NCBI GenBank assembly: GCA_046297835.1 | Contig: JBKBHI010000007.1 | Span: forward strand, 151,101 to 215,100 | DNA length: 64,000 nucleotides | Direction: 5' to 3' | From: Alphaproteobacteria bacterium | GTDB taxonomy: Bacteria > Pseudomonadota > Alphaproteobacteria > SMXQ01 | Shown: positions 852 through 39,718 of the stretch, in pieces | Layout: each line of letters starts with the position of its first letter | Numbering within the stretch: the first letter of the stretch is position 1 | Notes under the pieces: model-generated | Told to the model about the DNA's origin: nothing | Databases searched by the model: none | Seen by the model: the letters and a program-made list of their open reading frames with translations, nothing else | Translations under genes and position numbers: made by a program

Positions 852-2888
<2,037 letters not shown>

Positions 2889-3052: not shown

Positions 3053-4114
3053 TTACTTGGCGGCGCCGAGCAATTGCTGCATGCGCGCGACCACTTGCGG
3101 CGGCACGTTCACGGTGTCGGCGACCAGCTTCTGCAGCTTCTCGCCGTCCATCGGGAAGAAGTCGAGCTTCATGCGCTCGACGTCGGCCAGCAGCTCCTTG
3201 TCCTTCACCGTCGCGTCGAACGCCTTGCGCAGCGCGGCGACGCGGTCGGCCGGCACGCCCGGCGTGGAATTGTAGGCGCGGCCGATATCGCCGCCCGAGG
3301 CGTAGGTGGCGAGAACCTGGCGCTCTTCGTCGTTGCGGGCCAGCTCGACGACGGCGGGCACATCGGGAATTTCCGGCGCGCGCTCGGTCACGTACTGGAT
3401 CATCATGAAGGCTTGCTTGTCCTTCAGCCAATGGGCGCGCGCGGTCTTCATGGTGTTCCACGACGTCAGCGCGCCGTTCACCTCGCCGCGTTCCATGGCC
3501 AGCAGGCCGTCGGTCGAACCCGGATAGCCGGCAATGATCTTGAACTTGGTGCCGAGCAGCCCGTTCAGGATGCGCGGATAGCCGTCGGACGGCGAGCCCG
3601 GACCGGTCGAGGCGACCGAAACTTCGGTGGTCAGGACGTCCTTGACGGTCTTGGCTTTGGTGGTGTGCCAGAAGACCTGCACCTCGATGTTCGAGGTGGC
3701 GCGGCCGATCCAGGCGAACTCGTTGGACTTGTACTGCACGCCCGGGTTTTTCAGCGCCTCTTCCAAAGCCGCAGTCTGCGACAGGGCGGAGAGCGCCGTG
3801 CCGTCCTTGGGCGCGACCGAATACATGTAATTGGCGGCCTTGAAGCCGCCGGCGCCCGGCATGTTCTGCGGCACGATCGTCGGGTTGCCCGGAATATGCT
3901 TGCCCATGTAGCGCGAAACCATGCGCGCCAGGCTGTCGTAGGAGCCGCCCGGCGCGAAGCCGATGTACATGTTGATGGTCTTGCCCTTGTAGAACTGCTC
4001 GACCGATTGCTGCGCCTGAGCGGTGGCGGGCAGGAAGGCGAGAGCGGCGGCGGAAAGGGCGACGGCGACGGCGGTGCGTCCGGCGGACGGAGTCCGCCCC
4101 TGGCGATGGATCAC
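3053..4114 (-). CDS. Bug/TctC family tripartite tricarboxylate transporter substrate-binding protein (1 of 6)
   Basis: Signal peptide ending AQA, GFAPGGSYD, NMPGAGG, GYPG...LAMERGEV. GTG at 4114 follows AGGAG. Confidence 0.9.
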   Translation of the reverse strand: MIHRQGRTPSAGRTAVAVALSAAALAFLPATAQAQQSVEQFYKGKTINMYIGFAPGGSYDSLARMVSRYMGKHIPGNPTIVPQNMPGAGGFKAANYMYSVAPKDGTALSALSQTAALEEALKNPGVQYKSNEFAWIGRATSNIEVQVFWHTTKAKTVKDVLTTEVSVASTGPGSPSDGYPRILNGLLGTKFKIIAGYPGSTDGLLAMERGEVNGALTSWNTMKTARAHWLKDKQAFMMIQYVTERAPEIPDVPAVVELARNDEERQVLATYASGGDIGRAYNSTPGVPADRVAALRKAFDATVKDKELLADVERMKLDFFPMDGEKLQKLVADTVNVPPQVVARMQQLLGAAK

Positions 4115-4318
4115 GTGAAATCTCCTGAGATGTTTTTTAATGCAGATATTTTTATTAGTTAGAAGACTACAGGCGTGCGCCGCTCCTGCCAAGGTTCGCG
4201 ATCCGTGACAGCCGCTGTCGCATTGCGCCGCACAATGGGCGCTTAAAATTCGACCATGACGACCGCAGCGCGGCTTCCCAGGTTGCGCCGGGCGGCGGAG
4301 AGCCCTAGAACCATTGTC

Positions 4319-4843: not shown

Positions 4844-4930
4844 GCCAGCCCCGGCTTAGCGAAGTCTTTACTCCTTCCGGATAGGATCGCGGCACCAAGG
4901 GCGGCCAGGGGGTCGCAGAGCGGGGCAGCC

Positions 4931-5989
4931 GTGGATTTCTTCGACGACCTTCAGCGCGCCAAGCGCTTGGCCGATCAGGCGATGGGCTTTCTGGGCAAAG
5001 CCCAGCAGCCGCCGCATCCGCGCAATTTCGCCCTGCTCTACGGCTATTTCGCCAACAAGAGCGCGGCTCTGACCCGCGATCTCGACCAAGCGCTCAAGGT
5101 CGGCGCGCCGCTCGGCCAAGCCACGCTCGACGCGCTCTATCAGCGCCATTTCGGCATCGACGCCGGGGCTCAGACGATCCACAAGGCGAGCGGCGTCATC
5201 GAGGCTATGCTCGACAAGATATTGTCGCAAATGGGCGAGGCGCGCGATCACAGCCGCGCCTACGGCCAGGCGCTCGAAGATTTCTCCGGCCGCATCGACG
5301 GCGGCGGCGAGGCGGGGCTCTCGCTCGACGATCTGCGCGGGGCGCTGACGACCATGCTCGACGAGACGCGCAAGATGGAAAGCAACGCGCGTCGCCTGGA
5401 AACGCAATTCGCCGCGGCGAACACCGAACTGAGCGAACTGAAGGAAAGCTTCGAGCGGGTGCGCGTCGAGGCGATGACCGACGCGCTGACCGGCATCGCC
5501 AACCGCAAGAGCTTCGACGAGCGGCTGGCCGCGCTGACCCGCGACACGGAGGTTTGGCCGCTGGCGCTGATCATGGTCGATATCGACCATTTCAAGAAGT
5601 TCAACGACAATTACGGCCATCAGACGGGCGACCAGGTGCTGCGCCTGGTGGCGCAGACGCTGGTCGATTGCGTGCGCGGCCAGGACTTCGCGGCGCGCTA
5701 TGGCGGCGAGGAGTTCGCGCTATTGCTGCCGAACACCGATCTCGACGGCGCTTTCGCGGTCGCCGACAACATCCGCAACAAGGTGGCGGCCAAGAAGATC
5801 ACGCGGCGCAGCACCGGCGAAAGCCTGGGGCAGATCACGCTGTCGCTCGGCATCTCGCGCTATCGGCCGAACGAGGAGCTGGCCGCCTTCGTCAGCCGCG
5901 CGGACCAGGGCCTCTATCTGGCCAAGGACCACGGCCGCAACCGCGTCAGCTCCGTCGAATCCCTGCGCGAGATCGCCGCGAGCGCGTGA
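4931..5989 (+). CDS. Diguanylate cyclase (GGDEF) with N-terminal helical/coiled-coil region
   Basis: DALTGIANR, DIDHFKKFND, RGQD inhibitory site, RYGGEEF active site. Confidence 0.93.
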   Translation: MDFFDDLQRAKRLADQAMGFLGKAQQPPHPRNFALLYGYFANKSAALTRDLDQALKVGAPLGQATLDALYQRHFGIDAGAQTIHKASGVIEAMLDKILSQMGEARDHSRAYGQALEDFSGRIDGGGEAGLSLDDLRGALTTMLDETRKMESNARRLETQFAAANTELSELKESFERVRVEAMTDALTGIANRKSFDERLAALTRDTEVWPLALIMVDIDHFKKFNDNYGHQTGDQVLRLVAQTLVDCVRGQDFAARYGGEEFALLLPNTDLDGAFAVADNIRNKVAAKKITRRSTGESLGQITLSLGISRYRPNEELAAFVSRADQGLYLAKDHGRNRVSSVESLREIAASA

Positions 5990-6005: not shown

Positions 6006-6962
6006 TTACGCCGTCACGCGAACGTCCGCCCGATATTTCTCGCACAAGGTTTTCCAGCGCTCGGCCTTGCGCTTCTGCGCGGCGTCCACTTCGGGCGGAA
6101 TCTCCAGGAACGGCGGACGCAAGGGGCCCGGATCGACATAGCCGGCATAGCGGATGGCGATCTTCGCCGCCGTCTCGCGCCAGGACATGGTGGGCGGGGT
6201 CGCGCCCACCGGCGGCGCGAGATCGAGCGTGATCTCGGTGGCGCGGGCGATGTCGCCGCGCTTCATGGCTTCGCGCAGAGCCAATTGCGGCCAAGGCCCC
6301 ATCCAAGCTTCGATCGACCAGAACCCGCGCGCGCCGACCTGCCCGTAGGTCGCGTATTGCCATTGGTTGCAGAAGACCGTCATTTTGCCGCGCGCGATGT
6401 CGATCAGGCGCATGAATTCCGGCGGCTCGCGGTGGCTGTCCTTCATCGCGACGATGTTCGGAATCTTCAGCAGCTCCTGCACGATGCCGAGGTTGAGCTT
6501 GATGTTGTGCAGCGGCGGGTTGTGATAGACCATGATGCCGAGCTTGGGAAACAGCGCGGCGATGTCCTGAAAGAAGCGGATCGCGTTCTGCGGCGACGAC
6601 GGGAAGTAGAATGGCACGCCGATGAGCGCGCCCGCCGCCTTGGTCTGCTCGATGATTCTGAGCTTGGCGATCACCTCGCGGGTGTTCAACCCAGTCGCGC
6701 CGACGAACATCGGCACCCGGCGGTTGTTGATCTCGGCGGCGGCGCGGGTCAACGTCTCGAATTCGTTCGGCAACAACGTATGAAACTCGCCGAAGCTGCC
6801 CGCAGTCGAGATGACGTCGGCGCCGTCGCCGATCATGCGGTTCAGGCCTTTCTCGAGCCGATCGAGCGAGATCGTTTCGGTGGCGTGGATGTCCGCCGCA
6901 TCGTCCGTCGCGAAAGCCGGCATCATCGCCATAAGGCCGGAAAGCTCGTCTGACCTGATCAT
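6006..6962 (-). CDS. DHDPS/NAL-superfamily hydratase-aldolase, NahE (trans-o-hydroxybenzylidenepyruvate hydratase-aldolase)-like
   Basis: GSFGE, GATGLNTREVI, VYHNP, AMKD (Schiff-base Lys), GPLRPPF and C-terminal W..L.EKY match my recollection of NahE along the whole length. Confidence 0.8.
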   Translation of the reverse strand: MIRSDELSGLMAMMPAFATDDAADIHATETISLDRLEKGLNRMIGDGADVISTAGSFGEFHTLLPNEFETLTRAAAEINNRRVPMFVGATGLNTREVIAKLRIIEQTKAAGALIGVPFYFPSSPQNAIRFFQDIAALFPKLGIMVYHNPPLHNIKLNLGIVQELLKIPNIVAMKDSHREPPEFMRLIDIARGKMTVFCNQWQYATYGQVGARGFWSIEAWMGPWPQLALREAMKRGDIARATEITLDLAPPVGATPPTMSWRETAAKIAIRYAGYVDPGPLRPPFLEIPPEVDAAQKRKAERWKTLCEKYRADVRVTA

Positions 6963-6998
6963 CTCTTTAACTCCTGAAGTTCGCTATGAATCGGGTGT

Positions 6999-7571
6999 CT
7001 ACCACTTTTCCGGAACCGGTTTGGCCAAAGCCTCTTCCAGGCTGCTCGCGCGGATGAACTGCCCGTGCGGACGCAGGCGGCCCGTCGAATCGATTTTGTC
7101 CATGTTGCAATAAATTTCGAACTCGTAGCCGTCAGGATCGAGGAAGTTCACGGCGTAATTGCAGCCCGCGCCTTTGCGTCCTTCGAAGACGATAGGAATG
7201 CCGTTCGCCTTCAAGTAGTCCCGCGCCTTCAGCAGCATATCGGTGTTTTCGATCTCCAGGGCGAGATGCTCGACTTGCAAACCGGCATCCATGTCGCGAT
7301 GGCGCTTCGTCTTGGAGGGCTTCAGGCCGATCGCATGGTGGTCCTCGTTGCAGCGGAAGAACACCATGCCGATCTCGTTGCGGTCCGTTTCATGGAAGCC
7401 CATGACTTCCGTCCAGAAGCGCACGCTGCGCTCCATGTCGCTGACCTCATAGACGAGATGGCCGAGCTTGTTCACCTTGATCGGCGAGGTGCCGCTGTAG
7501 CGGTCCGGATGGCGCGGTTTGGCCGCAGCGGCCTCCACACGCTTATTTTCGGTCATCGTGTGATGATCCAT
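6999..7571 (-). CDS. Single-domain VOC (glyoxalase/extradiol dioxygenase) family protein
   Basis: LGHLVY, DHHAIG, EHLALE, FLDPDGYEFEIY. ATG at 7571 follows AAGGAG. Confidence 0.85.
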   Translation of the reverse strand: MDHHTMTENKRVEAAAAKPRHPDRYSGTSPIKVNKLGHLVYEVSDMERSVRFWTEVMGFHETDRNEIGMVFFRCNEDHHAIGLKPSKTKRHRDMDAGLQVEHLALEIENTDMLLKARDYLKANGIPIVFEGRKGAGCNYAVNFLDPDGYEFEIYCNMDKIDSTGRLRPHGQFIRASSLEEALAKPVPEKW

Positions 7572-7601
7572 GAGGTTCTCCTTTACCATTCAGCGCGGAG
7601 C

Positions 7602-8624
7602 TTATTTGAAGTTGGCCTTCAGAATGTCGATCACCTCTGGCGGCGTATCGGCGACGACGCGCCGGTAAAACGCTTCTAGCTCCTCGCCTTTCACCGGAAG
7701 GAACTTGAACTTGCGCTTTTCCAGCGCGGCGACGAACTCCTGATCGTTCAGCATGTCGTTCCATGCCTTGCGCAATGTGGCCACGCGTTCGGCCGGCGTT
7801 GCCGGAGGGAGAACGTAGGGCCGCGCCGCAGACAGGCCCTCGTTGATCGTCTCGAACAGAGCGCCGGGGTTCGGCATCAGTTCGCGTATGGTTGGAGCGT
7901 CGGGAATCAGCGCGTCGCGCTCGTTACCGCTGACAGCGAGCACTTTCGCGAAGCCGCTGCTCAGCCACGTCGGACGGGAGTGGACGATGCTCTCGACCGT
8001 GTTGGTGCGGCCGTCGATTTCGCCGCGCTCGATGGCGAGGTCTTGCTCGGCGCTTTCATAGCCATGCACCATGTTCAGCTTGATGCCCAAAGCATTTTGC
8101 CACACCAGGCTGAACAGATAGGTGCCGGTGCCGAGGCCTTGCGTGCCGATGGCGGGCGGCTTCGCCGATTTACGAATGTCCTCGATGCTCTTGAATTTGT
8201 CGGTCCGCACGACGAGGGCGTAGGTGCTGCGCGTCCAACTGCCGAGCACAGGCATTTTGCTGATGTCGAATTTGACCACGCTCGATCCGGCGAGCTGCTG
8301 GAGATAGTGGCCGCTACCAAGCTGATAGATATTGAGGCCGTCCGGCGCCGCGACATTGTAGGCGGCGTTGATCGAAGCGAGGCCGCCGGCACCCGGTTGA
8401 TTCTGGGCAATGACGGTCGGCTGGCCGGGAATATGCTTGCCGATGAATTGAGCGACCAAGCGGCCATCGGCATCGGCTGTGCCGCCTGCGGCATAACCGA
8501 TGACCACGCTCACGCGTTTGCCAGCATAATAATTGTCGCTCTGCGCCCAAGCGGAGCCAATCAGGGCGAGATTTGCAGCCGCCGCGGCGGTTCCACAAGC
8601 GAACACAGTGATGAATTTGGACAT
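7602..8624 (-). CDS. Bug/TctC family substrate-binding protein (2 of 6)
   Basis: Signal peptide ending AWA, GYAAGGTAD, NQPGAGG, LAIERGEIDGR. Confidence 0.9.
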   Translation of the reverse strand: MSKFITVFACGTAAAAANLALIGSAWAQSDNYYAGKRVSVVIGYAAGGTADADGRLVAQFIGKHIPGQPTVIAQNQPGAGGLASINAAYNVAAPDGLNIYQLGSGHYLQQLAGSSVVKFDISKMPVLGSWTRSTYALVVRTDKFKSIEDIRKSAKPPAIGTQGLGTGTYLFSLVWQNALGIKLNMVHGYESAEQDLAIERGEIDGRTNTVESIVHSRPTWLSSGFAKVLAVSGNERDALIPDAPTIRELMPNPGALFETINEGLSAARPYVLPPATPAERVATLRKAWNDMLNDQEFVAALEKRKFKFLPVKGEELEAFYRRVVADTPPEVIDILKANFK

Positions 8625-8690
8625 GCTTTCCTCCCTCTATTGATTTTTTGCGCCGCATTTTTGCGGTCGCGTCGCATCAGTCGGCGATGC

Positions 8691-9869
8691 TTAGCCGTAA
8701 AGCCACCTCTCGCCGTCAAGGCCGGGACGGCCCGGATATTTCGCGGCGACCGCGCGGACCGATGGATGGTCGAGTACGCCGAGCCGGCCGTTGTCGTGCA
8801 GAGTCTGATTGCCGACGACGAGCGTCGCGCCGCGCGCCTCGGCCGCCGTATGCAAGTTGTAGGGAAAATTCTTGCCGCCGCGGCCGAGATGCATGTGCAC
8901 CGCGCCGGTGTGGAACGAGGCGATGAACTCGCGGTAATCCTCGTCGGGGCATTGCGCTGCGGTGACGTTGGCGCAGGGGTGCACGCCGCCATGCGGGCCG
9001 CGGATTTCAAAGGCGTAGTCGTCGCCGACGCTCTTGGCCAATTCATGGAGGAACCGTTCGATGACGGCGGCTTCGGGGCCACCCTCGAACTTGGTCATGT
9101 GGTTGTTTTCGACAGTGATGCGCACCGGCGCGCTGAAGCGCGGCGGGATGCCGATATGGCGCGCCCACACCGGCATCATCCGGTCGCAGATGAAGACGCC
9201 CTGGGTGTCGAGCGGATTGACCGCCGGATAAATGCCTTCCGGGAAGGGGCGATAACGCCCGTCATGGCGCCAGTAGGCATAGCTGTCGCCGCCCCGGATC
9301 GGGTCGCCCGAACTGCCTTCGAGATGCGTGCCGTTGGGGTGGGTCAGCCGCCAGCGATCGCCCGGCTTCATCATTTCGGCCATGCGGTAGCGGATTTCCG
9401 AGATCAACTCGTGCGGCGTGCGCGCCCAGGCGCTGCACAACAGCGGCGCCGTCGTCGCCATGTTGCGCACCATCGGCACCTTGTTCTCGGCGAGGATGTC
9501 GTTCCATTCCTTGGTTTCCTCTTCGGAGGAAAGATCGAGGACATGGCTGATGACGATGTCGGCACCCTTCACCGCGTGCTTGAGCACCGGCGGCACGCGC
9601 CAGATGGTTTCCTTCGTCGGGATGTCCGGCCAAATGACGTTCGGACGGACCGGCATATCGACCCACATCACGGTGGGATGGGCGCCGCGCTGTTGCACGG
9701 CCGCCTGGACCCAGGCGATGGCCGTCTCGTCGACGATGTTGCGGCCGCCATGGAGCCCGTCCGGCGCGGCGACGATCAGGACGTTCTGCCCGGGCTGCAA
9801 GCGGGCGCAGTGCTCGAGCATGTCGTTGATAGCAATGGCCGCTTCGGGAGGCATAGGGGCGTACGACAT
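8691..9869 (-). CDS. Peptidase M29 / NicX-fold protein of unknown function
   Basis: Layout (LQPGQNVLIV...ADIVI...RLTHPNGTHL...FPEG...GVFICD...VRITVENNHMTKFEGGPEA...H...ATLVVGNQTLHDNG) resembles the thermophilic metalloprotease/2,5-dihydroxypyridine dioxygenase fold; remote similarity only. Confidence 0.55.
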   Translation of the reverse strand: MSYAPMPPEAAIAINDMLEHCARLQPGQNVLIVAAPDGLHGGRNIVDETAIAWVQAAVQQRGAHPTVMWVDMPVRPNVIWPDIPTKETIWRVPPVLKHAVKGADIVISHVLDLSSEEETKEWNDILAENKVPMVRNMATTAPLLCSAWARTPHELISEIRYRMAEMMKPGDRWRLTHPNGTHLEGSSGDPIRGGDSYAYWRHDGRYRPFPEGIYPAVNPLDTQGVFICDRMMPVWARHIGIPPRFSAPVRITVENNHMTKFEGGPEAAVIERFLHELAKSVGDDYAFEIRGPHGGVHPCANVTAAQCPDEDYREFIASFHTGAVHMHLGRGGKNFPYNLHTAAEARGATLVVGNQTLHDNGRLGVLDHPSVRAVAAKYPGRPGLDGERWLYG

Positions 9870-9877
9870 GATTTCTC

Positions 9878-10639
9878 CTATGGCGCGCGGCGTTTGCTGA
9901 CGCGGGCGCGTCCGGCCGTCGCGCCGCCGTCGAGGGTGATGACCGCGCCGGTCATGTAGCTGGCGGCGTCGGAGGCGAGAAACGAGACGAGATTGGCGAC
10001 ATCGGCTGACGTGCCGGCGCGGCCGAGCGGGATGTGCGCCGGCTTATCCTCGTCGGCGGATGCCGGGCGATGGCGGATCGTGCCGGGGCAGATACAGTTG
10101 ACGCGAATGCCATCGGGGCCGGCTTCGAGCGCCAGGGTCTTGGTGAACATGGCGACCGCGGCCTTCGAGGCGGCATAGGCAGCGCCGCCGGCGTAAGACA
10201 GAACCCCGCTGATCGAGCCGATATTGACGATGCTGCCGCCACCCTGCTTGCGCATATGGGGCAGGGCGGCCTGGCTACACAGCATGGTGCCGTCGACGTT
10301 GACGCGGAAGGTCTCGCGCCAATGATCGATGTTGTGGCCCTCGACCATTTCGAATGGATGGGCTGCAGCGTTGTTGCACAGCAAATCGAGGCGGCCGAAT
10401 GCGGCCGCAGCGCCGTCGACGGCGGCCCGCGCGCCCTCCGGCGTGCCGATGTCGGCGACGATCACGCGGATGCGGTCTTTATATTCGGCAAGGCTTTCGG
10501 ACGCGCGCGCGCAAGCCGCGCCATCGCGATCGGCTGCGAGCACGGACATGCCTTCGGCGGCGAGATGACGCACGATTTCGAGGCCGATTCCGGCAGCCCC
10601 GCCCGTGACAACGGCTGTTTTACGGACTTGTGTCAACAA
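9878..10639 (-). CDS. Short-chain dehydrogenase/reductase (SDR)
   Basis: TGGAAGIG, NNAA, YAASK, NCICPG. TTG start. Confidence 0.93.
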   Translation of the reverse strand: MLTQVRKTAVVTGGAAGIGLEIVRHLAAEGMSVLAADRDGAACARASESLAEYKDRIRVIVADIGTPEGARAAVDGAAAAFGRLDLLCNNAAAHPFEMVEGHNIDHWRETFRVNVDGTMLCSQAALPHMRKQGGGSIVNIGSISGVLSYAGGAAYAASKAAVAMFTKTLALEAGPDGIRVNCICPGTIRHRPASADEDKPAHIPLGRAGTSADVANLVSFLASDAASYMTGAVITLDGGATAGRARVSKRRAP

Positions 10640-10668
10640 GACCTCACGACGCTTGGCGCGACAGACGC

Positions 10669-10706
10669 AAAAAACGCCCGCCTGCCGGCGCTGGGCCGGC
10701 AGGCGG
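10669..10706 (-). terminator. Intercistronic terminator-like hairpin after the first gene of the catabolic operon
   Basis: Perfect 12-bp stem CCGCCTGCCGGC/GCCGGCAGGCGG, then GCG and six T on the minus strand. Confidence 0.55.
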
Positions 10707-10720
10707 ATATCACGTCGTGC

Positions 10721-11500
10721 TTAGGCCGCGAGGCGCGGGTTCGGAGCCGCCTGCTTGTTGTCGCGCGGCGGCTTGATGCCGGACGCTTCGTAAGCCCATT
10801 CGCCGATCTGATTGAACCACACGGTATTGACCGCCTGACGATCGCGGATGGCGGCAAGGCAAGCCTGCTGCTTCTCGGTCGTGTCGGCGTATTTCGCCAT
10901 GATGTCGAGCGGCGCGTCGCCGTGGCCGCCGTCGGAGGAGTCCGCCTCGTCGGCGGCGTCCCAATGGGCCAGCGCCTTCTGCGAAAGGTTCAGCGCCTTC
11001 CACATGTTGCGCGAGGTGCGGGCGCGTTCGCCGACGCGGGCGATCACTTCCTTGCCGCGCGACGCTTCGTTGCCGGCGATGGCCGCGAAGGCTTCGAGCC
11101 AGGGCTTGGTGCGGCTCACCCAATCGCAATAAGCGATGCGCATCATGGTGACCGGCGCGCCGCTGTAGTTGTAGATGAACTGGCGATCGACGCCGAGGGC
11201 CACGGCGAAATCGACCAAGCTTTCGTAGTGGCCGGTGACGATCGTCGGATCCTTCACCTCTTCGACGAACATGTTCTCGATCAGGTAGCTGCGCACTTCG
11301 AGGTGCGGGCAGTTACCGGTGATGTTGGCCAGCCAGCGCGGGAAATTGGCGGCGAACACGCAATGCTCGAGCGCATAAATGCGCGCGCCTTCGCGCGTCA
11401 GGTTGTTGTCGCGATATTCTTCCCACAGGGTGGGAACGCTCCACCGCAATTTGACGAAGCTGTCGAGGATTTCTTCGCGGAATTGATCGGGCGTGTACAT
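10721..11500 (-). CDS. TenA/PqqC/CADD family heme-oxygenase-like helical protein
   Basis: FP.WL..I...C......L.EN...EE......H......F..ALG, then E145 and AD...H; typical CADD-like spacing. Confidence 0.78.
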   Translation of the reverse strand: MYTPDQFREEILDSFVKLRWSVPTLWEEYRDNNLTREGARIYALEHCVFAANFPRWLANITGNCPHLEVRSYLIENMFVEEVKDPTIVTGHYESLVDFAVALGVDRQFIYNYSGAPVTMMRIAYCDWVSRTKPWLEAFAAIAGNEASRGKEVIARVGERARTSRNMWKALNLSQKALAHWDAADEADSSDGGHGDAPLDIMAKYADTTEKQQACLAAIRDRQAVNTVWFNQIGEWAYEASGIKPPRDNKQAAPNPRLAA

Positions 11501-11602
11501 AGGACGTCTCCCTCATGTGAACGGCCAGCTTCTGGGTGGCCTGTTGTGTTGAGGCCAATCTAACGACTGGGGCGACGGCGAATACGCCCTTTCCGTTCAT
11601 TA

Positions 11603-11627
11603 CCGTGTCAAGTATGATTTGACACGG
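11603..11627. promoter_or_regulatory. Perfect inverted repeat, candidate LysR operator, overlapping the lysR SD
   Basis: CCGTGTCAA-N7-TTGACACGG in the divergent intergenic region; overlaps GGAGG at 11626-11630. Confidence 0.5.
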
Positions 11628-11635
11628 AGGCATGA

Positions 11636-12610
11636 ATGGATCGTTTGAAGCTTATGGAAACCTATGCTGCCGTGGTCAAAAGCGGCAGCTATACGCGCGC
11701 CGCCCGCGAGCTGGGGGTGACCCGCGCCATGGTGAGCAAGCGCATTCAGGATCTCGAGGCGGCGCTCGGCGCCAAGCTGCTGAACCGCAATACCCATGGG
11801 CTCAGCGTCACCGGCATCGGCGGCGATTATTACGAGAGCGCGCTTAGCTTGCTGGCCGATCTGCGAGACATCGAGGAGCGGGTTCAGTCCAAGAGCGCCG
11901 CGCCGCGCGGCGAATTGAAGATCGTTTCAACCAAAACCTTCGGCGAGACGATCCTGGGGCCGATCATCGCCGAGTTCTGTCGTCTCTATCCGACGATCTC
12001 CGTGCAGGTGACGCTCGCCGACCGCGAAACGGCGTCCCACGGCATGGACCTGATCAGCGGAGGTTTCGACATCGCCGTGCGCACCTTGCCTATCCGCGAC
12101 AGCTCTCTCATCGCCCGGGCCATCACCGAATTGCCGCGTCTGCTAGTGGCCAGCCCGAGTTATCTCGAAAAGCACGATATGCCGCAACGGCCTGCCGATC
12201 TCGCGCGCCACAACTGCTTGGATCCCAGCGGAGCGGCGCAATATAGCTGGGATTTTCGCGGCAAGGATGGCGTCCGGCCGCAGACGGTGCGCGTCTCTGG
12301 CGCGCCGCGCGCCAACAGCAGCTTCGTCATCCGAGACGCCGCGCTCGCCGGTTTAGGCATTGCTATCTTGCGCGAATATCTGATCCTCGACGATATCGCC
12401 ACCGGCACGCTCGTGCCGGTGCTGCCCGCGCACGCGCTCGACGAGCGGACGCTTTACGTCATCTATCAGAGGGACCGCAGCCTGCCGCTACGCATGCGCG
12501 TGTTCATCGATTATCTGTCACAGCGCGTGAAAGATCATCTGCGCGCGCGGCCGTCGTTGCCGCCGACGCTCAATCCGCTCTTGGCGCGCGGCGGCGCCGA
12601 GCCTCGATAG
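11636..12610 (+). CDS. LysR family transcriptional regulator (CrgA-like)
   Basis: N-terminal HTH (GSYTRAARELGVTRAMVSKRIQDLE..LG.KLLNR), DIAVR, P..P.DL..HNCL; divergent from the enzyme operon. Confidence 0.95.
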   Translation: MDRLKLMETYAAVVKSGSYTRAARELGVTRAMVSKRIQDLEAALGAKLLNRNTHGLSVTGIGGDYYESALSLLADLRDIEERVQSKSAAPRGELKIVSTKTFGETILGPIIAEFCRLYPTISVQVTLADRETASHGMDLISGGFDIAVRTLPIRDSSLIARAITELPRLLVASPSYLEKHDMPQRPADLARHNCLDPSGAAQYSWDFRGKDGVRPQTVRVSGAPRANSSFVIRDAALAGLGIAILREYLILDDIATGTLVPVLPAHALDERTLYVIYQRDRSLPLRMRVFIDYLSQRVKDHLRARPSLPPTLNPLLARGGAEPR

Positions 12611-25457: not shown

Positions 25458-26741
25458 ATGAACGGCCAGACCAAACGGGCCCTCGCGCCCGCATTCTGCA
25501 TGGCGTTTTGCGCCGTCGCGGCGGGCTCCGCCGCGGCGATGGAAGGCCCGGAGGCTTTCCGCGGCAAGACCGTCACCGTCGCCATCGGCTCGGGCACCGG
25601 CGGCTCGCACGACCAATGGGGCCGCCTGATCAACCGCCATATGGGCAAGCACCTGCCGGGCAACCCCACCTTGGTGCCGAAAAACTTTCCCGGCGCCGGC
25701 GGCATGGCCCTGGCCAACACGCTGTGGGCGCAAAGCCCGAAGGACGGCACGATCTTCGGCATCGTCAACCGGACGATCTATCTCGAGCCGTTGTTCGCCG
25801 GGACCAATTCCAAGGCCCAGTTCGATCCGCGCAAATTCTCCTGGATCGGTAGCGCCGACACGATCGTGAGCGTCGCCATCGCCTGGCACACCTCGCCGGT
25901 GAAGACCTGGAAGGACCTCTACGATCACGATCTGATCGTCGGCGCGGTCGGCGCCGCCAGCGGCACGACCAAGGAAGCCTACGTGATGAAGAACCTGCTC
26001 GGCTTCCGCTACCGGGTCATCATGGGCTATCCCGGCGGCAACGACGTCGATCTCGCCATGGAGCGCGGCGAGATCGAGGGGCGCGCCAATCTCGCCTATT
26101 CGGGCTTGAAAAGCCGCAACGCCAAAGAGGTGGCCGAGGGCAAGATCCGCGTCCTCTACCAGATGGGCGTCGAGAAGCACCCGGAGATGCCGAACGTGCC
26201 GTCGGTGCTGGATATCGCGCGCAACGACGAGGAGCGGCGGCTGCTCGAGCTGAACTTCATGCACAGCGACATCGGCTACAGTTTCGCCGCGCCGCCCGAC
26301 GTGCCCGCTGCGCGCCTCGCCACGTTGCGCCAAGCGTTCAAGGCGACGCTCGAAGATCCCCAATTGAAGGACGAGGCGGCCAAGCAGCAGCTCGACATCA
26401 CCCATGTGCCGGGCGAACGGCTGGAGGCGCTGATGCAGAAAGCCTATTCCGCGCCGCCGCAGATGATCGCGCGCCTGCTGGAGCTGTCGCAGCCGACGTT
26501 GCGCGAGGACATGGCCGCGGCCAACGTGGTCAAGACCAAGCTCACCGGCGTCATGCGCCAGGGCCGCGCCGTCTCTTTCATGGACAAGGGCGGGGCGACC
26601 GAAGCGGCGATCAGCGGCGGCACCACGCAGATCACGCAGGCGGGCCAGAAGGCCGAAGCCTCGGCCCTCAAGGAAGGCATGACCTGCGAGATCACCTATT
26701 ACGGCAACAAGGGCACGGCGGCGAAGATCGCCTGCGATTGA
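25458..26741 (+). CDS. Bug/TctC family substrate-binding protein (3 of 6) with extra C-terminal domain of about 80 aa
   Basis: GSGTGGSHD, NFPGAGG, GYPGG..V.LAMERGEIEGR, followed by a beta-rich extension ending CEITYYGNKGTAAKIACD. Confidence 0.88.
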   Translation: MNGQTKRALAPAFCMAFCAVAAGSAAAMEGPEAFRGKTVTVAIGSGTGGSHDQWGRLINRHMGKHLPGNPTLVPKNFPGAGGMALANTLWAQSPKDGTIFGIVNRTIYLEPLFAGTNSKAQFDPRKFSWIGSADTIVSVAIAWHTSPVKTWKDLYDHDLIVGAVGAASGTTKEAYVMKNLLGFRYRVIMGYPGGNDVDLAMERGEIEGRANLAYSGLKSRNAKEVAEGKIRVLYQMGVEKHPEMPNVPSVLDIARNDEERRLLELNFMHSDIGYSFAAPPDVPAARLATLRQAFKATLEDPQLKDEAAKQQLDITHVPGERLEALMQKAYSAPPQMIARLLELSQPTLREDMAAANVVKTKLTGVMRQGRAVSFMDKGGATEAAISGGTTQITQAGQKAEASALKEGMTCEITYYGNKGTAAKIACD

Positions 26742-26758
26742 GGGAGAGAGTTCGCGAC

Positions 26759-27253
26759 ATGACCGTCCAGTTCGCCGACGTCGTCGGCCAGAAGAAGCTC
26801 AAGCTCGGCCACAGCAAGCGCACGCTCATCCGCACCCCGGATTTCCATGTCTGGGTCCATGCGGACGAGCCGGGCACCAAAGGGCCGATGCATACGCACA
26901 CGGCCGACGAAACCTTCTATTGCCTGCAGGGCGAATGCACCTTCACGCTCAAAGAGGCGTCGGGCAAGCGCTACAAGCGCAAGCTCACGCCGGGCATGAT
27001 CGTGATGATCCCCAAGGGCGATTTCTACCAGCTGCACAATACGGGCGACGAATATCTCGTGCTGCTCGGCACGCGCGGCGAAACCGATAAGAAGCCGCGC
27101 TTCGGCAAGGCAGGCGAGAAAGTCGGCCATAACAACTGGGCGATCGAGAACAAGCACGTGATCGAGGCGCGCAAGACGCAGATCGCGCGCAAGGCCAAAG
27201 CGCCGGCGAAGAAGAAGGCGGCGGTGAAGGTCAAAGCACGAAAACGGGCTTGA
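26759..27253 (+). CDS. Cupin domain protein with Lys/Ala-rich tail
   Basis: HTHTADETFYCLQGEC and PKGDFYQLHN cupin motifs; tail KAKAPAKKKAAVKVKARKRA. Confidence 0.85.
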   Translation: MTVQFADVVGQKKLKLGHSKRTLIRTPDFHVWVHADEPGTKGPMHTHTADETFYCLQGECTFTLKEASGKRYKRKLTPGMIVMIPKGDFYQLHNTGDEYLVLLGTRGETDKKPRFGKAGEKVGHNNWAIENKHVIEARKTQIARKAKAPAKKKAAVKVKARKRA

Positions 27254-27463: not shown

Positions 27464-28423
27464 TTAACGGATCGGCGTCGCCACGAACTTGTTGGCGGCC
27501 GCGCCGGCGATCAGGGGCGCGGCGTCGAAGGCGGGTTCGGCGGTCAGCAGGTCGCTGTCGAGATCGACGATCTCGTGCGCGCTCTGGTCGGCGAACAAGG
27601 CCTGGAGCAGCTGATGGTTCATGCGGTGGCCCGAACGCGAGCCGTGGAAATGGCCGATCAGCGGCATGCCGGCGAGATAGAGGTCGCCGACCGAATCGAG
27701 CACTTTGTGGCGCACGAATTCGTCGGCGTAGCGCAGGCCGCTCTCGTTGAGCACTTTGTCGCCGCTCACGACCACGGCGTTCTCGAGCGAGCCGCCTTTC
27801 AGCAAGCCTTGGGCTTGCAGGGCGCTGACTTCGTGCGCAAAGCCGAAGGTGCGCGCGCGGGCGATCTCGCTCTTGAACGAGCCGTCGACCAGATCGAAGG
27901 CGAAGGTCTGCTGGCGCACGGCGGCGCTGGCGAAGTCGATGTCGAAGCCGATCGAGAAGCCGGCGCCCGGCTCGATGGCGGCGCGCTTGTCGCCGACGGT
28001 GACGGCGACGGGCTTCTTGACGACGACGGCGCGGCGCGCGGCCGACTGCTCGACGACGCCGGCGCATTCGATGAGGAAGACGAAGGGCGCGGCGCTGCCG
28101 TCCATGATCGGCACTTCCGGACCGTTCAACTCGACGACGGCGTTGTCGATGCCGGCGGCGGACAGCGCGGCCATCAGATGCTCGATGGTGCAGATCGTCG
28201 CGCCGTTCTTGGTCAGCGCGGTGCAGAGCTGCGAATCGGTGACGTTGCGCCAGTCGGCGGGGATCGCCGCCTGCGCGCCGGAAATGTCGGTGCGCTTGAA
28301 GACGATGCCGCTGTTCTCGTCGGCGGGCAGCAGCGTCATGGAGACCTTAGCCCCGGTGTGCAGGCCGATGCCGCCGCAACCGATGGCGTTCTTCAAGGTC
28401 TTCTGGCGGACGATCTGTCCCAT
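27464..28423 (-). CDS. lpxC: UDP-3-O-acyl-N-acetylglucosamine deacetylase
   Basis: QKTL...G.GLHTG, TIEHLMAAL, E.PIMDGSA, ARARTFGF, RHKVLD.VGDL. Confidence 0.97.
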   Translation of the reverse strand: MGQIVRQKTLKNAIGCGGIGLHTGAKVSMTLLPADENSGIVFKRTDISGAQAAIPADWRNVTDSQLCTALTKNGATICTIEHLMAALSAAGIDNAVVELNGPEVPIMDGSAAPFVFLIECAGVVEQSAARRAVVVKKPVAVTVGDKRAAIEPGAGFSIGFDIDFASAAVRQQTFAFDLVDGSFKSEIARARTFGFAHEVSALQAQGLLKGGSLENAVVVSGDKVLNESGLRYADEFVRHKVLDSVGDLYLAGMPLIGHFHGSRSGHRMNHQLLQALFADQSAHEIVDLDSDLLTAEPAFDAAPLIAGAAANKFVATPIR

Positions 28424-28554
28424 CTTGTCTTCCTAAAGGCGCGAAACGCGGACTGAAAAGAGGCGAACCAATGACGACTCGCGCACGCGCGAAGCCGAAA
28501 AAATTTCGCTCCGAGGACCATAAAGACCGGCCCCCGGAGCGTAAAATCACTGTT

Positions 28555-28570
28555 TGTTACAGAATGTTAC
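28555..28570. promoter_or_regulatory. Direct repeat upstream of lpxC, candidate response-regulator site
   Basis: TGTTAC-N4-TGTTAC (GTAAC-N5-GTAAC on the minus strand), 10-bp period, in an AT-rich patch. Confidence 0.35.
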
Positions 28571-28627
28571 GGGCGGTTCCCAGGAATCCCGCGGCTGTGC
28601 CGAGGGGCCGTGAACCGCCCATTGGCG

Positions 28628-30373
<1,746 letters not shown>

Positions 30374-30578
30374 TTTCTAGCCTCCGATGAACACAAAGGA
30401 TGATGCGGGTGAGGTGAGGTGGGCGTTGCGCCGGCCGCCAAACCGGCTGGTGGATGACAGGGCGCCGAGCGGGCCTGGGGTGCACGCCCCGAGACGAATC
30501 TCGGAAAACGTGCAGCCCGGGCCCGCCGGAAGCGCCGACCGGGACTGTGCGCCGTCCCGGCCGTATGGGGTGTGAGCC

Positions 30579-31847
30579 TTAGAAGTTTTCACGCAGCCAG
30601 ACTCCAAAACGGCCGAACATTCCGGCCGGCTCCTCGCCGTCGCGCGCGCGCGGCGCCAGCGCCCCCATGGGGGCGTCGACGTGCTTGCTGACGGCGTAGG
30701 TCAGAAGGCCGGCGCAGGTGGCGAAGGCGGGACCGCCTGTCGCCTCGGCCAAGCCGCTGATCCGCAGCGGCCGGCCGCGCCGAACCTGTTTGTCGAGAAC
30801 GCCGGCGGCCAATTCCTGCACGCCTTGCAGCTGGCTCGCGCCGCCGGTGAGGACGACGCGGCGGCCGGCGATCTTGTCGATGCCGCTGGCCTCCAAGCGC
30901 GAGCGGATGTGCTCGAAGGTCTCTTCAAGGCGCGGCTGGATGATCGAGACGAGGATGGAGCGCGGCACATGGTTGGCCTGAGCGCGGTCTTCCTCGCCGA
31001 CCAGCGGCACGTCGATGATCTCGCGCTCGTCGGACGGCGACGGGATGGCGCTGCCGTAAAGCGTCTTCATGCGCTCGGCATGGGCGAGCGGCGTGGACAA
31101 GCCGCGCGCGATGTCGCTGGTGACGTGCGCGCCGCCGATCGGCACGCTGTCGGCATGGACCAGCTTGCCGTCGTAGAAGACGGCGATGGAGGTGGTGCCG
31201 CCGCCCATGTCGATGACGGTCGCGCCGAGGTTCATCTCGTCCTCGACCAGCGCCGAGAGCGCGGCGGCGTAGGGCGACATGACCAGGGCCGAGACGTCGA
31301 GATGGCAGCGCTGGATGCAGGTGGTTAGCGTGCGGACCGCGCCGGAGGCGGCGGTGACGACGTGCATATTGACGCCGAGGCGTTCGCCGTACATGCCGCG
31401 CGGATCGCGGATGTTGCGGCTGCCGTCGATGGTGTAGCCGACCGGCAGGCAGTGGATCAGCTCGCGCTCGCCGGTCTCGCTCTGGGCGCGGCCGTGGCTC
31501 AGCACCTTGCGGACGTCCGAATCGCCGACCTCGTGGCCGGCGATGGAGACTTCGTAATTCAGCGTCTTGGATTCCGGCTGGCCGGCCGAGAGGTTGACGA
31601 TGACCTCGCGGATGGTCTCGCCGGACATCTGCTCGGCGGCCTGCACGGCCGAGAGGATCGACATTTCGGCGGCTTCGACGTCGACGATGGAGCCGGCGCG
31701 CACGCCGTCGGAACTGTGGTGCCCGATGCCGGCGACCCGCAGGTGGCCTTCGTCGTCGGCGCGCGCGATGAAGCAGCACATCTTGGTCGTGCCGATATCG
31801 AGCGCGGCGATCACGCCGTTACGCGCCTTGGCCAGAGTTTTGCGCAT
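30579..31847 (-). CDS. ftsA: Cell division protein FtsA
   Basis: ALDIGTTK, IDMGGGTT, GGAHVTSDIA, VLTGGASQL, terminal amphipathic WLRENF. Confidence 0.98.
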   Translation of the reverse strand: MRKTLAKARNGVIAALDIGTTKMCCFIARADDEGHLRVAGIGHHSSDGVRAGSIVDVEAAEMSILSAVQAAEQMSGETIREVIVNLSAGQPESKTLNYEVSIAGHEVGDSDVRKVLSHGRAQSETGERELIHCLPVGYTIDGSRNIRDPRGMYGERLGVNMHVVTAASGAVRTLTTCIQRCHLDVSALVMSPYAAALSALVEDEMNLGATVIDMGGGTTSIAVFYDGKLVHADSVPIGGAHVTSDIARGLSTPLAHAERMKTLYGSAIPSPSDEREIIDVPLVGEEDRAQANHVPRSILVSIIQPRLEETFEHIRSRLEASGIDKIAGRRVVLTGGASQLQGVQELAAGVLDKQVRRGRPLRISGLAEATGGPAFATCAGLLTYAVSKHVDAPMGALAPRARDGEEPAGMFGRFGVWLRENF

Positions 31848-31861
31848 GGTGCCGATTCCCC

Positions 31862-32734
31862 CTAGGTGTCCTTGCCGGTTTTCTTGGCGTTCGGCGCTTT
31901 CGGCGCCGGCACCCCGGGCGACAGCCGCACGACCGTCCGGTCGGGCAGCCGCAGATCGATGTTGGCCACGTCGCGCGCCAGGACGTCCTGGTTGCGCTGC
32001 ATGGCGGCGAATTTGGCCCAAGCGCGGCCGGCGTCCTGTTCGGGAAGCTGCACTTCCGCGCCGTTGTCGAAGATCACGGTCCAGCGGCGCTGGCCGACGA
32101 AGCTGAAAGCGGCGACGCGCGCGCGCAAGTCCGGCTCGGCGGCGGCGATGGCGAGAATGGCGGGCGCGTTGGTCGGCGCGCCGTCGCCGATGATCTGCGG
32201 CAATTGGCCGAAGCGCGCCGGATCGGCGCTGGGAATGACCGCGCCGTCGATATCCACCACGGCCAGCTTGCCGTCCTTCTGCCACAGCGCCATCGGCACG
32301 CGCTCTTCGAGGCGCACGAAGACGGTATCGGGCAGGCGGCGCTCGACGGTCGCCTTGCGCACCCAGGGCAGCGCTTCGAGGCGGTTCTTCGCTTCGTGCG
32401 GATCGAAGGCGAGGATGGGCGAGCCGCGGCGCACGGCGAGCGCGGCCAGCACGTCTTGGCCGGGGCTTTCGCCGCGGCCCTGCACGAGAACCTCGCCGAC
32501 CGCGAGGCCGAGCCCGGCGGACACGATCATGCCGTGCCGTTCGGCCCAAGCGCCGGCGGCGGCGATATGGCCGGCGCGCGCCAAATAAATCGGCGTGCCG
32601 ACGACGACGGCGAGCGCGGCGACGCCCGCGCCCGCGCGCAGCGCCGGCTTCAGCCAGCGCGGCGGCGGCGTGCGGCGCACCGGCTTGCGCGACCCATTGC
32701 GCGACTGTGCGCGACGCTTGTTCAGCGCGGGCAT
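31862..32734 (-). CDS. ftsQ: Cell division protein FtsQ/DivIB
   Basis: Single TM segment, POTRA (LPWVRKATVERRLPDT), IDLRLPDR; position in dcw. Confidence 0.93.
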   Translation of the reverse strand: MPALNKRRAQSRNGSRKPVRRTPPPRWLKPALRAGAGVAALAVVVGTPIYLARAGHIAAAGAWAERHGMIVSAGLGLAVGEVLVQGRGESPGQDVLAALAVRRGSPILAFDPHEAKNRLEALPWVRKATVERRLPDTVFVRLEERVPMALWQKDGKLAVVDIDGAVIPSADPARFGQLPQIIGDGAPTNAPAILAIAAAEPDLRARVAAFSFVGQRRWTVIFDNGAEVQLPEQDAGRAWAKFAAMQRNQDVLARDVANIDLRLPDRTVVRLSPGVPAPKAPNAKKTGKDT

Positions 32735-33648
32735 GAGGCGTCCTCCACGATCCAGCTCACGAGCTGCTCGAAATTGATGCCGGCATGGGCGGCGATCTCC
32801 GGCACCAGGGAGAGCGGCGTCATGCCTGGCTGGGTGTTGACTTCCAGCACGTAAAATTCGCCGTCCGCGCCTTTGGTGTCGTCGTAGCGCAGGTCGGTGC
32901 GCGAGACGCCGCGGCAGCCGAGCGTGCGGTGGGCGGCGAGGCCGATCTCCAGCGCTTCCTGGTATTTCGCGGGCGACAGCGGCGCGGGCATCAGATGCTC
33001 GGCCTTGCCGTCGGTGTATTTCGCCTCGTAGCTGTAGAAGCCCTGCTTGGGGCGAATCTCGAGGCAGCCGAGCGCCTTGTCGCCCATCACCGCGACCGTC
33101 AGCTCGCGGCCGGGGATGAAGCGTTCGACCAGCACCTGCTCGCCGTAGGGCCAGGCGGTGTCGGCGAAGGGCTTGGCGTTGTCGCCGGGCTGGACGATAT
33201 GCACGCCGACGCTGGAGCCTTCGTTGAACGGCTTGATCACGTAAGGCGCGTCCATGAAGCCGCCCTTCAGCACCTCCTCGCGGCTCAGCACCAGGCCTTC
33301 GGCGACGCGGAGGCCGGCCGCCTGGAACAGGCGTCGCGCGGTCGGCTTGTCCATGGCGATGGCCGAGGCCAGCACGCCGGAATGGGTGTAGGGCAGGCCG
33401 ATCATCTCCAGCGCGCCCTGGATGCAGCCGTCTTCGCCGAAGCGGCCGTGCAGCGCGTTGAACGCCACCTGCGGGCGCGGATGCAGCTGCTTGAGGAGCG
33501 CGCCGATGTCGCGGCCGACGTCGATGGTGACGACATGATGGCCGAGCTTCTTGAGCGCGTTCGACACGGCCGCGCCGGAGACGAGCGACACCTCTCGCTC
33601 GGCTGACCAGCCGCCCATCAGCACCGCGACTTCCATCTTGCCGCTCAT
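32722..33648 (-). CDS. ddl: D-alanine-D-alanine ligase
   Basis: VLMGGWSAEREVS, LHGRFGEDG, EGSSVG, YSYEAKY, LEVNTQPGMT. Confidence 0.97.
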   Translation of the reverse strand: MSGKMEVAVLMGGWSAEREVSLVSGAAVSNALKKLGHHVVTIDVGRDIGALLKQLHPRPQVAFNALHGRFGEDGCIQGALEMIGLPYTHSGVLASAIAMDKPTARRLFQAAGLRVAEGLVLSREEVLKGGFMDAPYVIKPFNEGSSVGVHIVQPGDNAKPFADTAWPYGEQVLVERFIPGRELTVAVMGDKALGCLEIRPKQGFYSYEAKYTDGKAEHLMPAPLSPAKYQEALEIGLAAHRTLGCRGVSRTDLRYDDTKGADGEFYVLEVNTQPGMTPLSLVPEIAAHAGINFEQLVSWIVEDASCPR

Positions 33649-39703: not shown

Positions 39704-39718
39704 GGCGCGGTCGGTCCT

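Follow-up and report, generated by a model that had tools for sequence, protein, structure and literature searches.

The locus considered here, positions 6006-12610 of a 64,000-nt stretch of contig JBKBHI010000007.1 from an alphaproteobacterium (in the following the window), raises the question what kind of pathway is formed when a heme-oxygenase-like (HDO-fold) protein, a short-chain dehydrogenase/reductase (SDR), a NicX-like protein of 392 amino acids (aa), a Bug-type periplasmic binding protein, a VOC protein and a NahE-like aldolase are encoded side by side and divergent from a LysR-type regulator. The first-pass annotation of this DNA had described the set as a LysR-controlled operon for the degradation of (hetero)aromatic compounds, built from divergent enzymes. 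The genes of the window were read via open reading frames (ORFs), scans with Pfam and NCBIfam models and searches against PDB structures, and all seven genes, six on the minus strand and the LysR gene on the plus strand, were found again with family assignments that hold (Table 1). Taken together, they constitute a conserved catabolic module undescribed so far, a LysR-controlled degradative operon with unusual enzyme content, in which all proteins fall into known superfamilies and, within these, into subfamilies without a characterised member. A description of this gene combination was not found in the full-text literature, the coverage of which was incomplete, so that a prior description is possible. 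With regard to function, we favour, with about even chances, a reading in which the module lies on the chromosome, is regulated by LysR and breaks down an organic acid taken up from outside; a cyclic carboxylate, aromatic or heterocyclic and hydroxylated, would be the most likely substrate.

Evidence that the genes belong together comes from the recurrence of the set in other genomes. About 100 related loci, labelled by L-numbers, were compared and scored by tblastn of the window proteins together with called genes; every locus from the genome collection originates from a metagenome bin and none from an isolate. In approximately 22 loci the NicX-like protein is at least 59% identical to that of the window (pattern A), and nearly all of them have the HDO and SDR genes directly in front of the NicX-like gene, with the complete HDO-SDR-NicX-like triad present in about 20 loci. 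Approximately 12 alphaproteobacterial loci and one Gemmatimonas bin additionally contain the LysR and Bug genes in the gene order of the window, and the order LysR<->HDO-SDR-NicX-like-Bug was seen in L001-L007, L011, L015 and L099. The remaining two genes are less regular: among the approximately 22 pattern A loci a VOC gene occurs in about five and an aldolase gene in five, the nearest relatives (95-97% identity) have the Bug gene directly followed by the aldolase gene with no VOC gene, and in L099 LysR separates the core from the genes for VOC, aldolase and two additional HDO paralogues. The triad also occurs alone or with other transporters, as the bare triad in L100, accompanied by ABC-type binding proteins and with a bicupin, a LigXa_C protein and an aldolase nearby in L104, and in about ten further loci.

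More distant loci retain other parts of the set. In pattern A2 (L103, L125 and L126), which contains no HDO gene, the order is NicX-like-Amidohydro_2-small VOC-SDR-Opp-type ABC transporter, and the SDR is orthologous to that of the window at 57-64% identity. Pattern B comprises about 28 loci with NicX-like proteins of 47-51% identity, mainly in Binatia and often in several copies per genome, arranged as bicupin <- aldolase <- | -> NicX-like -> Amidohydro_2 (for example L136, 7754-12393), with an aldolase 43-46% identical to that of the window. In still farther members (43-49% identity; bins of the Chloroflexota and Desulfobacterales types) none of these partners is present. The gene set is therefore a real functional unit with HDO-SDR-NicX-like as its fixed core, an association that is conserved across phyla, and the window joins two independently conserved links, HDO-SDR-NicX-like and NicX-like-aldolase. 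The unit assumed by the first-pass annotation has thus withstood the co-occurrence check that was proposed for it, as the homologues recur together and in the same order.

The identity of the NicX-like protein is not apparent from its sequence alone: no Pfam or NCBIfam match was obtained even at E ≤ 10, with a Pfam copy that did not contain the PF26233 model, and a single-sequence phmmer search against the PDB returned noise only. Homologues carry the precomputed Pfam annotation PF26233 'NicX', often marked as weak, and a profile built from 36 family members retrieved NicX as the sole PDB match (E = 4.4e-5) and no M29 peptidase, even at E ≤ 10. An AlphaFold model of high confidence (pLDDT 93.7) placed NicX chains at the top of a Foldseek search (E = 2e-16, TM-score 0.61-0.68) and the M29 aminopeptidases PepS and AmpT in a second tier (TM-score 0.43-0.47), which bears out the M29/NicX fold proposed previously. 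The protein shares this two-domain, M29-derived fold, together with the PF26233 annotation of its homologues, with the NicX/Hpo/PicD enzymes of nic, pic and nicotine clusters (PDB 7CN3). True NicX sequences were taken from Pseudomonas genomes, and the two families were aligned by hhalign (97.6% probability, 16% identity, 322 columns) and in a joint MAFFT alignment, which gave a similar mapping. NicX binds Fe(II) by His265, Ser302, His318 and Asp320 and positions its substrate by His105, Glu177 and His189 (PMC7910607). NicX H318 aligns with H340 of the window protein, D320 with A342, S302 with either G322 or H327 depending on the alignment, and H265 with G291, two residues before the invariant H293. 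Further invariant residues of the NicX-like family are H297, H325, H327, H340, C21, C307 and several Asp, Asn and Arg residues, and H293, H297, H320, H325, H327, H340 and E344 form a His-rich candidate site, of which H293 and the H325-x-H327 motif are retained even in representatives at 20-30% identity. The invariant histidines 293, 297, 325 and 327 near the NicX ligand positions suggest that the site is kept but its ligands are others than in NicX. The fold is thus that of NicX, and the location of the metal site is probably shared as well, whereas the ligands (His-rich instead of two His, Asp and Ser) and the pocket, in which the residues contacting dihydroxypyridine (DHP) are replaced, probably differ.

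The family is rare, with 61 proteins at E ≤ 1e-30 and 537 at E ≤ 1e-3, many of them fragments, in a profile search of 1.84 billion representatives. All 80 genome loci with a NicX-like relative (L106-L183) are metagenome-assembled, and several Binatia- and Chloroflexia-type bins contain two or three copies. In contrast to NicX, the family occurs also in bins labelled as anaerobes, the cluster and the flanks scanned do not contain a deformylase, amidase or isomerase partner, and the HDO, SDR and NahE-like aldolase found beside it are not known as NicX partners. A similarity to PicC/PicD is that distant NicX-like relatives often have an Amidohydro_2 neighbour.

The classification of the first gene product as CADD/PqqC-like was confirmed at the level of the fold. 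Its AlphaFold model (pLDDT 91.4) retrieved SSO2700, PqqC, CtCADD, BesC and UndA in Foldseek (TM-scores 0.6-0.8), all with the seven-helix heme-oxygenase-like fold that is common to CtCADD/PabS, UndA, BesC and SznF as well as to the metal-free PqqC and TenA, but the scores against the curated models for PqqC (23 bits, cutoff 240) and CADD (34 bits, cutoff 200) are both far below the cutoffs. Ten residues, E45, H46, E80, E81, H91, E93, E145, H179, D187 and H193, are invariant across 27 homologues. Profile alignments place E81 and H91 at the EE...H motif of CADD, and E145, D187 and H193 at the E, D and H in the H-x3-D-x2-H region of the aminobenzoate synthase 9pj4, so that invariant Glu or His residues are found at most presumed ligand positions; we take both motifs to be the CADD metal ligands. 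The first His position of helix alpha-3 is occupied by Ala183 in the window protein, with the invariant H179 one helical turn earlier. In the HDO superfamily, the metal is held by a set of three His and three carboxylates on helices alpha-1 to alpha-3 (PMC13108848). A diiron site of this 3-His/3-carboxylate type is plausible for the window protein, which is probably a diiron oxidase. The shifted His, the catabolic context and the fixed SDR partner set it apart from the characterised HDOs, none of which has such a role. Two extra HDO paralogues in L099 (1340-2927), 46-48% identical to the window protein, are encoded upstream of VOC and aldolase.

The SDR returned generic FabG-like matches from the PDB. 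Nearly all loci have an SDR of at least 57% identity encoded beside the NicX-like protein, directly upstream where an HDO gene is present and downstream in the HDO-less L103, L125 and L126. In L018 (1381-9523) an HDO (52%) and an SDR (59%) are paired without a NicX-like gene and adjoin a Rieske/LigXa_C oxygenase, a cupin, a PEPCK-like protein and a thiamine pyrophosphate (TPP)-dependent enzyme; HDO-SDR is therefore a portable two-gene unit.

The aldolase belongs, according to its sequence relationships, to the NahE/PhdJ-like subgroup and is nearer to it than to other subgroups of the DHDPS/NAL superfamily. Its best PDB matches are PhdJ (6dan, 1e-31) and NahE (9frt, 3e-31; 6dao, 6e-31), followed by YagE (8e-17), which corresponds to 112-114 bits against at most 65 bits for YagE or DapA, a lead of approximately 50 bits, and it remains far under the cutoffs of the NCBIfam equivalogs DapA, HpaI, KdgD and NanA. 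K174, at the Schiff-base position, and Y146 have their counterparts in PhdJ, the G(S/T)FGE motif of NahE and PhdJ (PDB 6DAO and 6DAN) is present as GSFGE, and GSFGE, Tyr146, Asn148 and Lys174 are kept in nearly all of 35 orthologues. The predicted reaction would be that of the subgroup, hydration and retro-aldol cleavage of 4-aryl-2-oxobut-3-enoates. Differences from NahE and PhdJ are the identity of only about 30%, the lack of upper-pathway genes for naphthalene or phenanthrene at this locus and the optional nature of the aldolase in the module; as in PhdI-PhdJ, the Binatia-type aldolase adjoins a bicupin. 

For the VOC protein, the best PDB match is 3b59, followed by catechol 2,3-dioxygenases. 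H44, H108, E158 and the segment C80-N-x-D83-H84-H85 are invariant in six orthologues and align with 3b59; presumably, H44/H108/E158 represent the metal triad and CN-DHH contains the active-site His of extradiol dioxygenases. The second-sphere Tyr of these enzymes ('SYF' segment of 3b59) is replaced by Asn148, and with a single domain of about 190 aa the protein does not have the two-domain extradiol architecture, although one-domain extradiol enzymes exist. It is possibly a small extradiol-type dioxygenase. Translation probably starts at Met7 (position 7571; 190 aa) because this codon is preceded by the ribosome-binding site AAGGAG. The VOC gene is missing from the nearest relatives L001, L002 and L011 and present in L004-L007, L015 and L099. 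VOC and NahE-like aldolase had been named as parts of the pathway; both are present in the window, but as optional parts, each missing from some relatives.

Uptake is represented by the Bug protein, which has an N-terminal signal peptide ending in AWA-Q and orthologues at the same position in 12 loci. Neither TctA nor TctB was found among the window genes scanned, and the Bug protein is in this respect an orphan receptor. The situation resembles TphC-TpiBA, the tripartite tricarboxylate transporter (TTT) for terephthalate, in that a Bug/TctC protein is encoded within a degradative operon and TphC is among the nearest solved relatives, and differs from it by the weakness of this similarity and by the lack of a nearby Rieske dioxygenase and TctA/B. 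The uptake component varies by lineage, being a Bug protein in Alphaproteobacteria and a binding protein of the ABC or TRAP type in other groups, and such an exchange of the uptake part beside constant enzymes would fit the usual signature of catabolic modules. As a side observation, five TctC/Bug genes are present in the 64 kb (3053-4192, 7602-8624, 25458-26741, 49570-50586 and 50772-51896), and a small cupin gene (26738-27253) stands behind the one at 25458-26741. The genome is rich in Bug genes, and their products are orphan receptors as far as the window genes scanned show.

Control by the divergent regulator would fit the conservation of the intergenic region. The LysR protein did not reach the cutoff of any NCBIfam equivalog, but its orthologues (54-91% identity) are divergently encoded at the same position in 12 loci. 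The perfect dyad TGTCAA-N7-TTGACA occurs once in the window, with 0.04 occurrences expected by chance, and no other block is as well conserved in an alignment of ten intergenic regions, among them those of the Gemmatimonas bin and L099. The dyad ends 11 bp before the ATG of LysR and is centred approximately 115 bp upstream of the ATG of the HDO gene. The dyad is a probable recognition site of LysR, and its position would fit such a site that also permits autoregulation; the TTGACA arm could in addition be the -35 element of a promoter reading into the HDO gene. A divergent LysR gene, a dyad at this distance from the first structural gene and its overlap with the leader of the regulator are familiar from LysR-regulated catabolic operons, but the spacing is not the textbook T-N11-A. 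The claim of a single operon of six genes stood only in part: the genes are co-oriented with gaps of 8-81 bp, but a strong terminator-like hairpin behind the HDO gene renders co-transcription uncertain. A hairpin at the equivalent position with compensating base changes is found in L001-L004 and L011, with a T-run in L001-L003, and by terminating or attenuating transcription in part it may give the HDO gene an expression level different from that of the genes behind it.

From these components, a pathway can be proposed, in which the order of steps and the chemistry are deduced from gene identities and associations. The Bug protein would capture the acid in the periplasm and a TTT membrane unit encoded elsewhere would import it. 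The substrate or an intermediate would activate LysR at the dyad and thereby switch on the divergent genes, with the hairpin after the first gene adjusting the HDO level separately. The HDO-fold protein would use O2 for a first oxidation, either a hydroxylation or an oxidative decarboxylation. Sister clusters would use an Amidohydro_2 enzyme of the decarboxylase or hydratase type in its place, and this replacement suggests that each of the two supplies the NicX-fold enzyme with its substrate, for example through a decarboxylation, oxidative or non-oxidative. After an NAD(P)-dependent dehydrogenation by the SDR, the ring would be opened by the NicX-fold enzyme, whose His-ligated metal site would correspond in position to the iron site of NicX. 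The hydratase-aldolase, where present, could cleave the resulting 2-oxo-enoate to pyruvate and an aldehyde, and the small VOC protein might have an auxiliary part, in ring cleavage or isomerisation. That an imported acid is catabolised is favoured because a binding protein and LysR accompany enzymes that include a pyruvate-releasing type of aldolase, and because distant clusters have bicupins, Rieske/LigXa-type oxygenases and Amidohydro_2 proteins as neighbours. These neighbours suggest a cyclic, probably aromatic or heteroaromatic substrate. From the uptake and ring-cleavage pathway for a (hetero)aromatic compound in the first-pass annotation, the catabolic unit is hence retained, but the aromatic substrate is read from the company of the genes. 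A bolder version, which we regard as rather unlikely, is that a first catabolic HDO (oxidative decarboxylation or hydroxylation) feeds a new class of His-ligated NicX-fold ring-openers and a dedicated NahE-like aldolase, together forming a widespread pathway by which uncultured Alphaproteobacteria, Binatia and Chloroflexota of soil and water degrade a natural cyclic acid.

Several observations weigh against the favoured reading. No characterised member was seen in the NicX-like, HDO or aldolase subfamilies and all related loci are metagenome bins; VOC and aldolase are dispensable in close relatives; the similarity of the Bug protein to its nearest PDB relatives, the terephthalate-binding TphC/TBP, is weak (E ~1e-12); and the hairpin may split the unit into two transcripts. 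About a dozen HDOs have been characterised, and according to a 2026 review all of them act in natural-product biosynthesis or cofactor production (PMC13108848). A role of the cluster in biosynthesis or salvage, with a small molecule or cofactor as product, would be in line with this record and with PqqC, CADD and TenA, relatives which make or salvage cofactors. It is nevertheless highly improbable in view of the periplasmic binding protein, the LysR regulator and the pyruvate-releasing aldolase, of a transporter type that is exchanged between lineages and of distant-cluster neighbours that are cupins, Rieske proteins and decarboxylases, and no adenylating, PKS/NRPS, methyltransferase or export genes were found in the cluster and the flanks scanned. 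The NicX-like protein itself retains one of the four Fe ligands of NicX (H318, as H340) and none of the three substrate residues, with S114, S196 and P208 at the positions of H105, E177 and H189. The statement that NicX opens 2,5-dihydroxypyridine can consequently not be transferred to this protein, and it was rejected as a 2,5-DHP dioxygenase, for which neither ligand nor substrate residues match. We therefore give almost no credence to a variant nicotinate or picolinate route via 2,5-DHP: it could account for the NicX fold and for the Pfam NicX family of the homologues, but at 16% identity H265, S302, D320, H105, E177 and H189 all lack an identical aligned residue, and genes for N-formylmaleamate deformylase, maleamate amidase, maleate isomerase and a hydroxylase are missing from the cluster and the flanks scanned. 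A lower pathway of the naphthalene/phenanthrene type, with a NahB-like SDR, a NahC-like VOC protein and a NahE/PhdJ aldolase acting on a bicyclic aromatic acid after an initial oxygenase encoded elsewhere, is very unlikely as well. NahE and PhdJ are the nearest solved relatives of the aldolase, the VOC protein carries the metal triad of extradiol dioxygenases together with the CN..HH motif, and SDRs fill the NahB role in known pathways. However, HDO-SDR-NicX-like is the constant part, whereas VOC is absent in the closest relatives and the aldolase in others, the aldolase shares only about 30% identity with NahE/PhdJ, the VOC protein has Asn148 in place of the second-sphere Tyr, the HDO and NicX-like proteins would be left without a role, and the cluster and the flanks scanned contain neither a Rieske oxygenase nor a NahD-type isomerase. 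In agreement with the first-pass annotation, family scans found no Rieske, ferredoxin or flavin monooxygenase domains between 6006 and 12610, and with the NicX partners absent too, the gene set does not map onto a described pathway.

More serious, although still somewhat unlikely, is the possibility that the NicX-fold protein is not a dioxygenase but a metal-dependent hydrolase or lyase that opens an amide, lactam or lactone or catalyses a decarboxylation. The pathway would then resemble a sequence of dehydrogenase, lactone or lactam hydrolase and hydratase-aldolase, with oxidative cleavage by the VOC protein here and by the bicupin in the distant clade. The fold is derived from M29 aminopeptidases, the Asp and Ser ligands of NicX are missing, and the His-rich H...HxH site is conserved in the wider family. 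All candidate catalytic residues are kept in bins labelled Desulfospira, Desulfobacteraceae, Syntrophaceae and Desulfatiglandales; this conservation in bins labelled as obligate anaerobes makes ring cleavage with O2 doubtful, and the chemistry of the NicX-fold protein may be independent of O2. In the Desulfospira bin L170 (4657-11140; L172 is identical) the NicX-like protein is the only enzyme encoded behind a TRAP transporter, with a gene for a PrpR-type sigma-54 activator divergent from DctP-DctQ-DctM and the NicX-like gene. Moreover, the Binatia-type clusters already have a ring-cleavage-type bicupin beside the aldolase, which resembles the pairing of PhdI and PhdJ in phenanthrene degradation. 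Against a hydrolase speak the family profile, which recognised NicX and no M29 peptidase, and the structure, which is clearly nearer to NicX. The frequent Amidohydro_2 neighbour recalls the PicC decarboxylase and PicD dioxygenase, three-His iron centres are also typical of non-catechol dioxygenases, and taxonomy labels of bins can be wrong. Whether the enzyme is O2-dependent as NicX or hydrolytic as the parent M29 fold, we consider about equally probable.

If catabolism of a cyclic carboxylate by this module is true, a catabolic role would be added to the HDO superfamily, and a function would be given to a rare NicX-fold family that has no studied member and is confined to uncultured lineages. 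It would further show that a NahE/'pahE'-like aldolase, a type used as marker for the degradation of polycyclic aromatic hydrocarbons, occurs also in unrelated pathways, which affects how metagenomes are read. The identity of the substrate would reveal a carbon source of Binatia and uncultured Alphaproteobacteria.

Table 1. Genes and sequence elements of the candidate catabolic locus; positions refer to the window.
Feature	Position	Strand	Evidence and remarks
NahE/PhdJ-type hydratase-aldolase, DHDPS/NAL superfamily, 318 aa	6006-6962	-	Pfam DHDPS 92.9 bits; last gene of the unit
One-domain VOC/glyoxalase-fold protein	6999-7589	-	Pfam Glyoxalase 77 bits; optional part
Bug/TctC periplasmic solute-binding protein	7602-8624	-	Pfam TctC 42.3 bits (cutoff 27) and signal peptide
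NicX-fold predicted metalloenzyme, 392 aa	8691-9869	-	Homologues with PF26233, profile, AlphaFold/Foldseek; centre of the module
Classical SDR, 253 aa, TTG start	9878-10639	-	Pfam adh_short and adh_short_C2, ~195 bits
G+C-rich hairpin, 13-bp stem followed by T-run	10677-10707	-	Between HDO stop and SDR start; resembles an intrinsic terminator
Heme-oxygenase-like (HDO/CADD/PqqC-fold) protein, 259 aa	10721-11500	-	Haem_oxygenas_2 37 bits, TENA_THI-4 34 bits; first gene after the divergent promoter
Perfect dyad TGTCAA-N7-TTGACA	11606-11624		LysR/HDO intergenic region
LysR-type transcriptional regulator	11636-12610	+	Pfam HTH_1 and LysR_substrate

The base composition of the locus had been judged by eye to be lower in G+C than the flanks, and this difference is real: the G+C content of 6006-12610 is 0.631 compared to 0.675 for the whole window, approximately 4.5 points lower, and the mean per gene is 0.631 in the cluster and 0.679 for the other genes of the window (Mann-Whitney p = 0.0008). 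The dip previously described as clearest at 6.9-8.7 kb corresponds to a minimum of 0.57-0.61 at 6.5-8.7 kb, but it is accompanied by a second one at 11.0-12.0 kb. The G+C content at third codon positions (GC3) is slightly lower in the cluster (0.81 vs 0.855; p = 0.03). Recent horizontal acquisition, which had been considered possible, is nevertheless weakly supported: synonymous codon usage of the cluster is not atypical compared to the rest of the window (p = 0.42), no tRNA gene, flanking direct or inverted repeat or mobility gene was found at the boundaries of the putative island, and related bins have the same flanks, consisting of genes for an HtrA-like protease, a GGDEF protein, a pentapeptide protein and another Bug protein. 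An older mobility of the module is likely because the Gemmatimonas bin has the same cluster arrangement, at 73% identity, and the triad stands in unrelated contexts in other lineages. The window as a whole represents core chromosome, with lpxC, ftsZ, ftsQ, ddl, murC, ftsW and mraY, which form a division/cell-wall (dcw) cluster at 27464-40807, as well as uvrD and thiC.

Some further features of the locus and its surroundings deserve mention. The GGDEF gene encodes a diguanylate cyclase (4931-5989, plus strand; GC3 0.88). An ORF of 250 aa antisense to it (4868-5620, minus strand) was considered as flanking gene and discarded; it has no family match and is probably spurious. A role related to pyrroloquinoline quinone (PQQ), conceivable from the PqqC fold in combination with a tricarboxylate transporter, was rejected in view of the score far under the PqqC cutoff and of invariant residues that are of the metal-ligand type. 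A link to thiamine was likewise considered, based on the TenA-like fold, the nearby thiC gene with its TPP riboswitch and NMT1/THI5-type binding proteins in distant clusters; it was dropped because thiC is set apart by unrelated genes, the resemblance to TenA exists at the level of the fold only and no thiamine genes travel with the module. The riboswitch itself (RF00059; 2785-2889, minus strand) scored 66.4 bits at a gathering threshold of 54.3 and lies upstream of thiC (852-2699, minus strand).

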